64,000 nucleotides of DNA, from contig OZ024745.1 in NCBI GenBank assembly GCA_964016885.1, forward strand, positions 56,544,001 through 56,608,000, in the 5' to 3' direction. Positions 34,061 to 40,537 of this stretch are shown here, one piece after another. The stretch's first letter is position 1; every line of letters starts with the position of its first letter. Under the pieces are notes generated by a model. That model was not told the DNA's origin, made no database searches, and saw only the letters and a program-made list of their open reading frames with translations. This DNA comes from Eledone cirrhosa (Eukaryota). A program made the position numbers and the translations under genes.

Positions 34061-36874
34061 AAATGTAAGTATGCATGTATACGTACATACATATATGTAT
34101 ACAGACGTACAGTAGCATGCACATATATATATATATATACATATATACATACATATGCATACAGGTACACATACATATATGCACGTATCAGTTTAGCGGC
34201 GCTAACGTCGCTTTGTTCGTTTGTAAACAAACTGAACAGCCTGAATTTATGCCATACGGTGTTAAGGCAACCACGTCACCTTTTTGTTCAACACTGACAC
34301 AGGAACGATGTACTAGTTTCAAGCTTGTTAGCTATCATCAGCACCGTTTACCCATCTGCCAGATAGTTGAACGTTCGAAAGTATATACTTTCCTTATGAA
34401 AATTAACGGCTGAGCAGCCTAATTTGCATATTGAGTGAGTTAAATCGGTCAGGCATACCGAAAACGATAAATTGAAACAAAATGAAAACGAAATTTCATT
34501 TCTCACTCTTAGTATGGCACTTACTTAAATGTAAGTATGCATGTATACGTACATACATATATGTATACAGACGTACAGTAGCATGCACATATATATATAT
34601 ATATACATATATACATACATATGCATACAGGTACACATACATATATGCACGTATCAGTTTAGCGGCGCTAACGTCGCTTTGTTCGTTTGTAAACAAACTG
34701 AACAGCCTGAATTTATGCCATACGGTGTTAAGGCAACCACGTCACCTTTTTGTTCAACACTGACACAGGAACGATGTACTAGTTTCAAGCTTGTTAGCTA
34801 TCATCAGCACCGTTTACCCATCTGCCAGATAGTTGAACGTTCGAAAGTATATACTTTCCTTATGAAAATTAACGGCTGAGCAGCCTAATTTGCATATTGA
34901 GTGAGTTAAATCGGTCAGGCATACCGAAAACGATAAATTGAAACAAAATGAAAACGAAATTTCATTTCTCACTCTTAGTATGGCACTTACTTAAATGTAA
35001 GTATGCATGTATACGTACATACATATATGTATACAGACGTACAGTAGCATGCACATATATATATATATATACATATATACATACATATGCATACAGGTAC
35101 ACATACATATATGCACGTATCAGTTTAGCGGCGCTAACGTCGCTTTGTTCGTTTGTAAACAAACTGAACAGCCTGAATTTATGCCATACGGTGTTAAGGC
35201 AACCACGTCACCTTTTTGTTCAACACTGACACAGGAACGATGTACTAGTTTCAAGCTTGTTAGCTATCATCAGCACCGTTTACCCATCTGCCAGATAGTT
35301 GAACGTTCGAAAGTATATACTTTCCTTATGAAAATTAACGGCTGAGCAGCCTAATTTGCATATTGAGTGAGTTAAATCGGTCAGGCATACCGAAAACGAT
35401 AAATTGAAACAAAATGAAAACGAAATTTCATTTCTCACTCTTAGTATGGCACTTACTTAAATGTAAGTATGCATGTATACGTACATACATATATGTATAC
35501 AGACGTACAGTAGCATGCACATATATATATATATATACATATATACATACATATGCATACAGGTACACATACATATATGCACGTATCAGTTTAGCGGCGC
35601 TAACGTCGCTTTGTTCGTTTGTAAACAAACTGAACAGCCTGAATTTATGCCATACGGTGTTAAGGCAACCACGTCACCTTTTTGTTCAACACTGACACAG
35701 GAACGATGTACTAGTTTCAAGCTTGTTAGCTATCATCAGCACCGTTTACCCATCTGCCAGATAGTTGAACGTTCGAAAGTATATACTTTCCTTATGAAAA
35801 TTAACGGCTGAGCAGCCTAATTTGCATATTGAGTGAGTTAAATCGGTCAGGCATACCGAAAACGATAAATTGAAACAAAATGAAAACGAAATTTCATTTC
35901 TCACTCTTAGTATGGCACTTACTTAAATGTAAGTATGCATGTATACGTACATACATATATGTATACAGACGTACAGTAGCATGCACATATATATATATAT
36001 ATACATATATACATACATATGCATACAGGTACACATACATATATGCACGTATCAGTTTAGCGGCGCTAACGTCGCTTTGTTCGTTTGTAAACAAACTGAA
36101 CAGCCTGAATTTATGCCATACGGTGTTAAGGCAACCACGTCACCTTTTTGTTCAACACTGACACAGGAACGATGTACTAGTTTCAAGCTTGTTAGCTATC
36201 ATCAGCACCGTTTACCCATCTGCCAGATAGTTGAACGTTCGAAAGTATATACTTTCCTTATGAAAATTAACGGCTGAGCAGCCTAATTTGCATATTGAGT
36301 GAGTTAAATCGGTCAGGCATACCGAAAACGATAAATTGAAACAAAATGAAAACGAAATTTCATTTCTCACTCTTAGTATGGCACTTACTTAAATGTAAGT
36401 ATGCATGTATACGTACATACATATATGTATACAGACGTACAGTAGCATGCACATATATATATATATATACATATATACATACATATGCATACAGGTACAC
36501 ATACATATATGCACGTATCAGTTTAGCGGCGCTAACGTCGCTTTGTTCGTTTGTAAACAAACTGAACAGCCTGAATTTATGCCATACGGTGTTAAGGCAA
36601 CCACGTCACCTTTTTGTTCAACACTGACACAGGAACGATGTACTAGTTTCAAGCTTGTTAGCTATCATCAGCACCGTTTACCCATCTGCCAGATAGTTGA
36701 ACGTTCGAAAGTATATACTTTCCTTATGAAAATTAACGGCTGAGCAGCCTAATTTGCATATTGAGTGAGTTAAATCGGTCAGGCATACCGAAAACGATAA
36801 ATTGAAACAAAATGAAAACGAAATTTCATTTCTCACTCTTAGTATGGCACTTACTTAAATGTAAGTATGCATGT
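34061..36874 (-). repeat. Retrozyme-like tandem array, left block: 6 x 466 bp plus 18 bp
   Basis: Units start at 34061, 34527, 34993, 35459, 35925, 36391 and 36857; the ORF track repeats identically every 466 bp. Confidence 0.95.
34304..34348 (-). ncRNA. Minimal type I HHR, first of 6 in the left block (also 34770, 35236, 35702, 36168, 36634)
   Basis: aacggug-CUGAUGA-u-agcu(aaca)agcu-u-GAAAC-ua-GUA-caucguu; 7-bp helix I; palindromic ACUAGU in helix III. Confidence 0.85.
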
Positions 36875-39800: not shown

Positions 39801-40537
39801 CGTGGTTGCCTTAACACCGTATGGCATAAATTCAGGCTGTTCAGTTTGTTTACAAACGAACAAAGCGACGTTAGCGCCGCTAAACTGATACGTGCATATA
39901 TGTATGTGTACCTGTATGCATATGTATGTATATATGTATATATATATATATATGTGCATGCTACTGTACGTCTGTATACATATATGTATGTACGTATACA
40001 TGCATACTTACATTTAAGTAAGTGCCATACTAAGAGTGAGAAATGAAATTTCGTTTTCATTTTGTTTCAATTTATCGTTTTCGGTATGCCTGACCGATTT
40101 AACTCACTCAATATGCAAATTAGGCTGCTCAGCCGTTAATTTTCATAAGGAAAGTATATACTTTCGAACGTTCAACTATCTGGCAGATGGGTAAACGGTG
40201 CTGATGATAGCTAACAAGCTTGAAACTAGTACATCGTTCCTGTGTCAGTGTTGAACAAAAAGGTGACGTGGTTGCCTTAACACCGTATGGCATAAATTCA
40301 GGCTGTTCAGTTTGTTTACAAACGAACAAAGCGACGTTAGCGCCGCTAAACTGATACGTGCATATATGTATGTGTACCTGTATGCATATGTATGTATATA
40401 TGTATATATATATATATATGTGCATGCTACTGTACGTCTGTATACATATATGTATGTACGTATACATGCATACTTACATTTAAGTAAGTGCCATACTAAG
40501 AGTGAGAAATGAAATTTCGTTTTCATTTTGTTTCAAT
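36873..40537 (+). repeat. Retrozyme-like tandem array, right (inverted) block: ~7.9 x 466 bp
   Basis: Reverse complement of the same monomer; GT microhomology at 36873-36874; ends in (TA)n. Confidence 0.95.
36932..36976 (+). ncRNA. Minimal type I HHR, first of 8 in the right block (also 37398, 37864, 38330, 38796, 39262, 39728, 40194)
   Basis: aacggtgCTGATGAtagctaacaagcttGAAACtaGTAcatcgtt; predicted cleavage after 36969. Confidence 0.85.

Follow-up and report, generated by a model that had tools for sequence, protein, structure and literature searches.

The stretch of DNA analysed here, called the window, comprises 64,000 nucleotides of the Eledone cirrhosa assembly GCA_964016885.1 (contig OZ024745.1, positions 56,544,001 to 56,608,000; G000:C5:56544001-56608000 in the 3.0 Gb genome that was searched). 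At 34061-40537 it carries an insertion of repeated non-coding units, each with a hammerhead ribozyme, i.e., a retrozyme of the class without long terminal repeats (non-LTR retrozyme). Fourteen hammerhead cores are present, 6 on the minus and 8 on the plus strand, while 0/100 shuffled sequences contained a core, and the repeat period is 466. An earlier note, made from the sequence alone, had proposed 14 hammerheads in a tandem array of 466-bp units, and its count, coordinates and unit length proved exact. The units are indeed arranged in tandem, but they do not form one head-to-tail array: two arrays of opposite orientation meet head to head at 36873-36874. The earlier note had noticed neither this inversion nor two further features described below, the fixed insertion ends and the (TA)n target, and it is these three that carry the mechanistic information.

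For the numbering of positions a unit is taken from cleavage site to cleavage site, with q1 as the base after the GUA site (36970). The left arm (34061..36874, minus strand) contains 6.04 units and 6 hammerheads, starts 5' at q233 (36874) and has its 3' end at 34061, i.e., at q250-251, which we call fixed end A; the tail is absent here. The right arm (36873..40537, plus strand) contains 7.86 units and 8 hammerheads, starts 5' at q370 (36873) and has its 3' end at 40537, i.e., at q306 or fixed end B, where the tail is present. The tail itself (q251-q306; 40482..40537, plus strand) is found at the right insertion end and not at the left one. At the head-to-head (5'-5') junction (36873..36874) both arms share an overlap of 2 nt (GT). 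Across 34061-36874 and 36873-40537 the units are 100% identical, both arms base for base.

The outer ends of both arms pass into (TA)n. The left (TA)n tract (33902..34060), preceded by (AC)n at 33804-33902, and the right one (40538..40575) would be the two halves of the target; target-site duplications are unreadable inside (TA)n. Just left of the insertion a direct repeat of ~35 bp (33396-33430 and 33768-33802) was seen, with a microsatellite beside each copy.

One unit, the predicted 466-nt RNA monomer or circle, is represented by 36970..37435 on the plus strand. Its GC content is 36%, and the longest ATG frames, 48 amino acids on the ribozyme strand and 112 on the other, bear out the earlier statement that no credible open reading frame (ORF) exists. 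Neither the unit nor the arms contain a frame for reverse transcriptase (RT) or a GIY-YIG endonuclease, as an autonomous Penelope-like element (PLE) would. No unique internal region was seen between the repeats. An AT/GT microsatellite-like segment (37092..37219, plus strand) folds as a long hairpin, and its length differs among loci, which accounts for most of the variation in unit length. Reverse transcription of this unit would start in the region 37208..37279 (plus strand), which consists of a small hairpin with end A in its loop, a tail of ~60 nt with a second hairpin, and end B. A second, older and far shorter insertion of the same family lies at 29143..29383. It is without hammerhead and consists of an inverted A arm and a tail-only B arm, with (TA)n tracts on both sides.

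Ribozyme structure and family size

The first plus-strand hammerhead (36906..36995; core 36939-36969) is of type I with an extended stem I and is predicted to cut after 36969. It recurs each 466 bases and is mirrored on the minus arm. Stem I is formed by AACGGUG/CAUCGUU, i.e., 7 bp including one G-U, and carries a UA bulge and, on its distal side, a long extension; the core consists of CUGAUGA and GAAA, and the cleavage-site triplet is GUA. Helix II (AGCU/AGCU) has 4 bp, the loop AACA and a U-U at its base, and helix III (AC-UA-GU) has 2 bp and a 2-nt loop, which yields the palindrome ACUAGU. Stem I, helix II, the GAAA core and the GUA site agree with the earlier note. The hammerhead in each unit has the canonical metazoan type I layout; in tandem repeats, ribozymes of this layout fold as dimers (PMC4209133). 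The U-U pair closing helix II had been pointed out as non-canonical; it is present but not unprecedented, as axolotl HHR_Amex2 has the same U-U at the helix II base. Monomers of HHR_Amex2 reached 22% cleavage in an hour, and its dimers cleaved much better (PMC7229834).

In silico folding of the circular unit gave -152.4 kcal/mol (z -7.7 vs 40 shuffles), a value raised by the microsatellite hairpin. The earlier note had named Rfam as a place to look for a prior description, and a search of the window gave nothing at gathering score; below it there was a weak match to Hammerhead_HH9 (18.5 bits, E 0.086), with 36.5 bits for the sister family introduced below and a cut-off of 52. Matches to Rfam microRNAs were rejected, as they came from the AT/GT hairpin and were under gathering score. 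A motif scan found no hammerhead on the opposite strand.

For covariation, 12 hammerhead variants were chosen to span the window family and its sister family. Within the core they differ only at N7, which is free to vary, and at the base of the cleavage site; compensatory changes occur in helices I and II. Changes on both sides were found in 6 of 17 pairs, with a covariation score of 0.375 compared to 0.143 for shuffles (0/500 as high) and at most 0.107 for slid controls; most of these changes represent one split between two related families, and therefore the count is not a probability. The structure was drawn from the window's own sequence. Core and compensatory changes persist across 38% divergence, and judged from this alignment the ribozyme is kept by selection.

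Copy numbers in the genome were determined by pattern search. The exact 31-nt core gave 10,718 matches genome-wide (control 0) and a looser core pattern 28,566 (control 7). The sister family accounts for 7,271 matches; its units of 461-468 bp are collinear with and 62% identical to the window unit, and its hammerhead has the same core, with G-C at the helix II base and a GUU site. One pattern spanning both families matched 38,957 times, and at 450 bp each these ~39,000 motifs would make up ~0.6% of the genome, which is a very rough estimate. Sister-family loci were inspected at G000:C1:5737017-5754500 (L126-L145) and C1:30830500-30842500 (L146, L147), with arrays of up to ~31+1 and 6+13 among the matches listed and the same two-end footprint. 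Being dispersed, of high copy number and low in GC, with a canonical type I hammerhead, the window family fits the non-LTR retrozymes to which the earlier note had assigned it. The unit had been considered longer than usual, but reported lengths are 150-450 bp (PMC7229834) and 51-972 bp (bioRxiv 10.64898/2026.07.22.740005), and 466 bp lies inside the latter range.

Both families keep the sequence ATGCAAAT (37317..37324 in the window, plus strand), which we take to be the promoter element named octamer and which is a candidate internal promoter element. It lies 118-130 nt upstream of the cut site, and among 99 different upstream contexts 73 have it without a mismatch. An octamer is also part of the promoter of newt satellite 2, and by this analogy ATGCAAAT suggests an internal promoter of the small nuclear RNA (snRNA) type. 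Newt satellite 2 is transcribed from such an internal snRNA-type promoter (cited in PMC2220036).

A viral origin was considered and rejected, as 6 pattern matches in viral contigs were found and 0 aligned to either unit. In a comparison of four sequencing runs with the stretch, two raw-read runs yielded 0 reads and two contig sets yielded one 35-nt piece and 19 pieces, respectively, none of them spanning. Contigs of run X4 match the core and helix II alone (37394-37429) and then diverge, which suggests from the sequence that the organism of this run carries another hammerhead family.

Insertion ends and Penelope-like elements

The first 100 exact core matches form 53 clusters on C1 across 68 Mb, and 52 of these clusters together with the window were used for a survey of insertion ends (53 stretches). 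Among their 90 arms, 47 end at B (~q305-310) and 33 at A (~q248-251); 8 stop ambiguously inside the microsatellite segment immediately 5' of A, 1 is edge-cut and 1 ends elsewhere. The A and B ends pass into (TA)n in 75 of 80 cases. Diverging arm pairs were found 32 times, i.e., 23 A+B, 1 A+A, 0 B+B and 8 with one ambiguous arm, and the one converging pair represents two neighbouring insertions. Genome-wide, the end patterns gave 2,709 matches for A-(TA)n, 1,997 for B-(TA)n and 3 for cleavage-site-(TA)n. Neighbours within 7 kb were paired on C1. The A ends used were the 100 listed; of the 100 B ends listed, the 70 that lie in the same part of C1 were used. Among these listed ends 26 of 27 diverging pairs are A+B (1 A+A, 0 B+B, 0 converging, 4 further pairs on the same strand), which gives p ~ 1e-7 vs independence.

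The sister family shows the same behaviour. Of its 29 arms, 15 stop at B and 11 at A, while the other 3 reach an edge or stop elsewhere, and 10 of 12 inverted loci have the A+B combination. In both families end A lies in the loop of the small hairpin and end B just past the second hairpin; the tail between them has ~56-60 nt in the window family and ~70 in the sister family. Junction overlaps, by alignment ends, are mostly 0-5 bases. The 5' starts are scattered across the unit, and therefore copying passes the cleavage site instead of stopping there. At two loci (L122 and L058) the ends pass into (CAT)n and not into (TA)n, so that the target is not strictly TA.

Insertions of PLEs are described as 5'-truncated partial tandems, often with an inverted 5' copy and a tail of 30-40 bp at one end (PMC8557442), and microsatellites are preferred sites of Naiad and Neptune elements (PMC8557442 and its preprint). 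The PLE protein of Anolis cuts and extends both target strands, and two internal RNA start sites bound the tail (PMC11167929). Two alternative 3' ends with a one-sided tail, an inverted 5'-truncated arm and a microsatellite target are likewise found here. Read from the sequence, fixed ends, tail and inversion match the Penelope-like 'tail' signature, and the earlier suggestion that PLE enzymes are used gains support from this footprint.

Sequences of the PLE GIY-YIG type are abundant in the genome: there are 10,595 candidates, of which 150 were scored, with open frames of up to 1,096 amino acids. The PLE families of this genome also end in (TA)n, some with tails of their own. Open frames of 1,096, 938 and 844 amino acids, the last including a translated TA repeat, were found at L103, L101 and L102, respectively. 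They encode a C-x4-C-x2-C linker before GIY-YIG, a Neptune-type mark, and are candidate active partners.

Several leads for a partner were rejected. The PLE fragments neighbouring the insertion have 12-13-mers in common with it, which is at chance level (E 0.46-0.85), and 50 further PLE loci contained separate retrozyme insertions only. The PLE close to L065 belongs to a different family and was inserted separately, and a tail-like sequence in L111 turned out to be the sister family. In the 3' regions of L071, L082 and L117, PLE terminal repeats carry an apparent variant of the hammerhead core (U3-A8 type); a short AT-rich stretch after this core loosely resembles the retrozyme tail, with no significance in BLAST.

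Other elements of the window include two truncated PLE copies (40850-42190, plus strand, and 5330-8400), both with a C-terminal GIY-YIG domain (Pfam PF01541) and both ending in (TA)n. The copy at 5330-8400 has an inverted arm with a tail of ~40-47 nt, and no above-chance sequence in common with the retrozyme was found in either copy. At 31543-32128 a head-to-head pair of terminal repeats belongs to another PLE family (the one with an ORF end in L065) and lies inside another inverted element; its minimal hammerhead lies at 31913-31947, and one of the two arms ends in a tail of ~57 nt. Fragments of long interspersed nuclear elements (LINEs; endonuclease, RT and zf-RVT domains) at 53903-57341 (minus strand), 59865-60527 and 62640-63257 (both plus strand) are unrelated to the retrozyme.

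Origin of the head-to-head arrays

The class of this element is known, and what is new is the anatomy of its insertions. We consider it very probable that the window family is a non-autonomous non-LTR retrozyme mobilised by a PLE. Tandem units would be transcribed, perhaps from the internal octamer-type promoter, and the type I hammerhead would cut after GUA; this step would probably work best in a dimer, formed by way of the self-complementary ACUAGU. A host ligase would then circularise the 466-nt monomer, in analogy to the retrozymes of coral, mussel and axolotl. A PLE protein with RT and GIY-YIG domains, to which the match with PLE tails points, would cut the (TA)n tract, and reverse transcription would be primed from each broken DNA end at one of the fixed internal sites A or B, which are ~60 nt apart. 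Each complementary DNA (cDNA) would extend beyond the cleavage site over several units, which a circle permits; the read-through as such is observed. The two cDNAs would be joined 5' to 5' over few bases, as seen at the junctions, and later local duplication would enlarge some arrays. We lean towards this whole model, i.e., a single young insertion copied by a PLE enzyme from an RNA circle, with less confidence than for the identity of the element.

The variation within loci bears on the copying step. In the unique part of the unit, copies from the same arm diverge by 1.2%, those from opposite arms by 1.0% and those from different loci by 4.9%; when the window is left out, the values are 1.9% within an arm and 2.2% between opposite arms. 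Private variants in the sample are mostly singletons or present in every copy, with few intermediate cases. They occur in all copies of both arms at L006_11 (7/7), L040 (4/4) and L041 (9/9, 8/8 and 8/8), and as 2/2 at L017, L029_30 and L052. At the sister-family locus C1:30.83 Mb, 17/17 units are identical over both arms, and this unit differs by 4-16 bases from the modal units of four other loci. Variants that are either singletons or in all copies, and such uniformity, suit an origin in which a single unit was copied in one round and the copies then mutated independently.

Several observations weigh against this model. Only 13 of 28 loci have a within-locus divergence that does not exceed their divergence from the nearest other locus, the reason being that across the genome young subfamilies hardly differ. 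Four arrays (L158, L006_11, L157 and C1:5.74 Mb) show patterned or two-unit variation, so that local duplication or a multimeric template is needed; as this goes against a pure monomer circle, for the circle we still lean on the data from coral, mussel and axolotl (PMC7229834). No terminal repeat matching the unit was found at any of 50 PLE loci, which represent several families and were drawn from the 10,595 candidates. The tail of ~56-70 nt exceeds the 30-40 bp given for PLEs (PMC8557442), the Anolis PLE used uncleaved RNA in vitro with the hammerhead dispensable (PMC11167929), and of 9 retrozyme dimers from Xenopus only 1 showed cleavage (bioRxiv 10.64898/2026.07.22.740005). In the folding model, the lowest-energy fold of the isolated 90-mer hammerhead (-28.9 kcal/mol) engages part of the core in base pairs, and the active fold (-26.7 kcal/mol) is less stable by 2.2 kcal/mol. 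The origin of most covariation in a single split, mentioned above, belongs here as well.

With the same element and a PLE enzyme, the template could instead be linear, with long transcripts that read through existing arrays without being cleaved, or with repeated template jumps, and the hammerhead would only trim or regulate the RNA. Uncleaved RNA was the main substrate of the Anolis PLE in vitro (PMC11167929), PLEs form partial tandems themselves, and putatively non-autonomous Chlamys elements, most Chlamys elements being without hammerheads, give multicopy head-to-tail insertions (PMC8557442); two-unit or patterned arrays could be copies of mixed multimers. However, private variants in every copy of both arms require one homogenising step somewhere, the hammerhead is kept with compensatory changes across the 38% divergence, and the RNA of mussel retrozymes occurs mainly as circles (PMC7229834). 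We therefore regard a linear template as unlikely, although it deserves serious consideration.

Arrays could also have grown later by unequal crossing-over or slippage from a single inserted unit, as proposed in bioRxiv 10.64898/2026.07.22.740005. The array at C1:5.74 Mb (32 matches listed) has variants common to subsets of the units examined. In L158 (G000:C1:19313400-19318500), an array of an older subfamily, the units follow the two-unit order A B A' B A', and the two A' units have later mutations in common. The B units of L158 have a change in stem I, which could weaken alternate ribozymes and lead to a dimer RNA. Some arrays thus also grew locally. As a general explanation this route is improbable, as inverted arms are often both multimeric with one haplotype (14 identical cores in the window, 17/17 units at C1:30.83 Mb), most private variants are singletons or in all copies, and the insertion signature is present at both ends whatever the arm length.

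Slightly less credible again is that the units are mere terminal repeats (pseudo-LTRs) of a 5'-truncated autonomous PLE. Truncated PLEs do give the same inverted, tailed footprint, e.g., the pair at 31543-32128, but the units repeat up to ~30 times without an ORF between them, 0 arms in the 53 stretches lead into a PLE ORF, and all PLE protein matches are separate insertions. Moreover, the unit hammerhead is canonical, whereas the PLE repeats of this genome carry minimal variants. Array copy number can be misassembled, and the units are 100% identical, but an assembly artefact (fold-back reads, collapsed repeats) can hardly explain the insertion, as its two flanks differ, its arms begin and stop at different unit positions, and the A+B layout recurs at dozens of loci, diverged and tiny ones included. 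Classical L1 twin priming, in which only one end is fixed, usually as poly(A), and the other varies, was set aside since two fixed ends are observed here.

The model of a PLE-copied circle can be extended to a more specific proposal, for and against which we see about equal weight. In this proposal the PLE enzyme would start at two structure-defined sites of the hammerhead-made circle, one per broken (TA)n strand, would roll round it and leave head-to-head arrays. Recognition would depend on the two conserved hairpins and not on terminal-repeat likeness, and the octamer-type promoter would drive the cycle.

The mobilising enzyme of animal retrozymes is an acknowledged gap. Retrozyme repeats are stated to show no conserved motif that reveals a partner (2020 review, PMC7761336), and the 2026 preprint (bioRxiv 10.64898/2026.07.22.740005) argues from co-occurrence and sequence likeness and, for the arrays, suggests crossing-over at the locus. 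The footprint described here links two retrozyme families to PLE chemistry, and insertion ends can be read in any genome as a test. If the more specific proposal holds, the insertions would be direct genomic evidence of PLE-driven rolling-circle retrotransposition of an animal circular RNA, with template region and target named for an in vitro test. The head-to-head arms could also yield long double-stranded RNA.

Comparison with known retrozymes and Penelope-like elements

No account of the window family or of PLE-type ends in retrozymes was found in the literature searched, which did not include Repbase, Dfam and the supplement of PMC7229834, where the family may be listed. The accessible text of bioRxiv 10.64898/2026.07.22.740005 contains none of the mollusc terms looked for and neither 'tail' nor 'head-to-head'.

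Like the metazoan non-LTR retrozymes of coral, mussel and axolotl (PMC7229834; bioRxiv 10.64898/2026.07.22.740005), the window family is built of tandem units that are a few hundred bases long, non-coding and low in GC. Also in common are a single canonical type I hammerhead in each unit, its short and palindromic helix III, and copy numbers in the thousands. PLEs co-occur with the retrozyme in the genome, as for other metazoan non-LTR retrozymes, and the loci are many and dispersed. Unlike in the accessible accounts of these two sources, fixed 3' ends, a tail, head-to-head arms and a (TA)n target are found here. Cleavage and circles have been demonstrated for the coral, mussel and axolotl retrozymes, whereas those of the window family are predicted from sequence. 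For Xenopus families 21 PLE matches have been reported (bioRxiv 10.64898/2026.07.22.740005), whereas the window unit showed no similarity to PLE terminal repeats in 50 loci.

The tandem hammerhead repeat of newt satellite 2 resembles the window family in its weak helix III, and the newt ribozyme cleaves in dimeric form (PMC7229834). Non-autonomous Chlamys elements such as MRC1, putative PLE derivatives, are also similar in their multicopy head-to-tail insertions (PMC8557442). At their 3' ends they generally resemble autonomous partners, and most Chlamys elements are without hammerheads, whereas the window family has a conserved hammerhead and no partner among the 50 PLE loci.

From the PLEs themselves (Neptune, Naiad and Poseidon; PMC8557442, PMC11167929) the unit differs by lacking an RT or GIY-YIG frame, by its canonical instead of minimal hammerhead and by its many whole-unit repeats. 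With them it shares the two 3' ends, the one-sided tail, the inverted 5'-truncated arm, partial tandems, the (TA)n target and a type I hammerhead.

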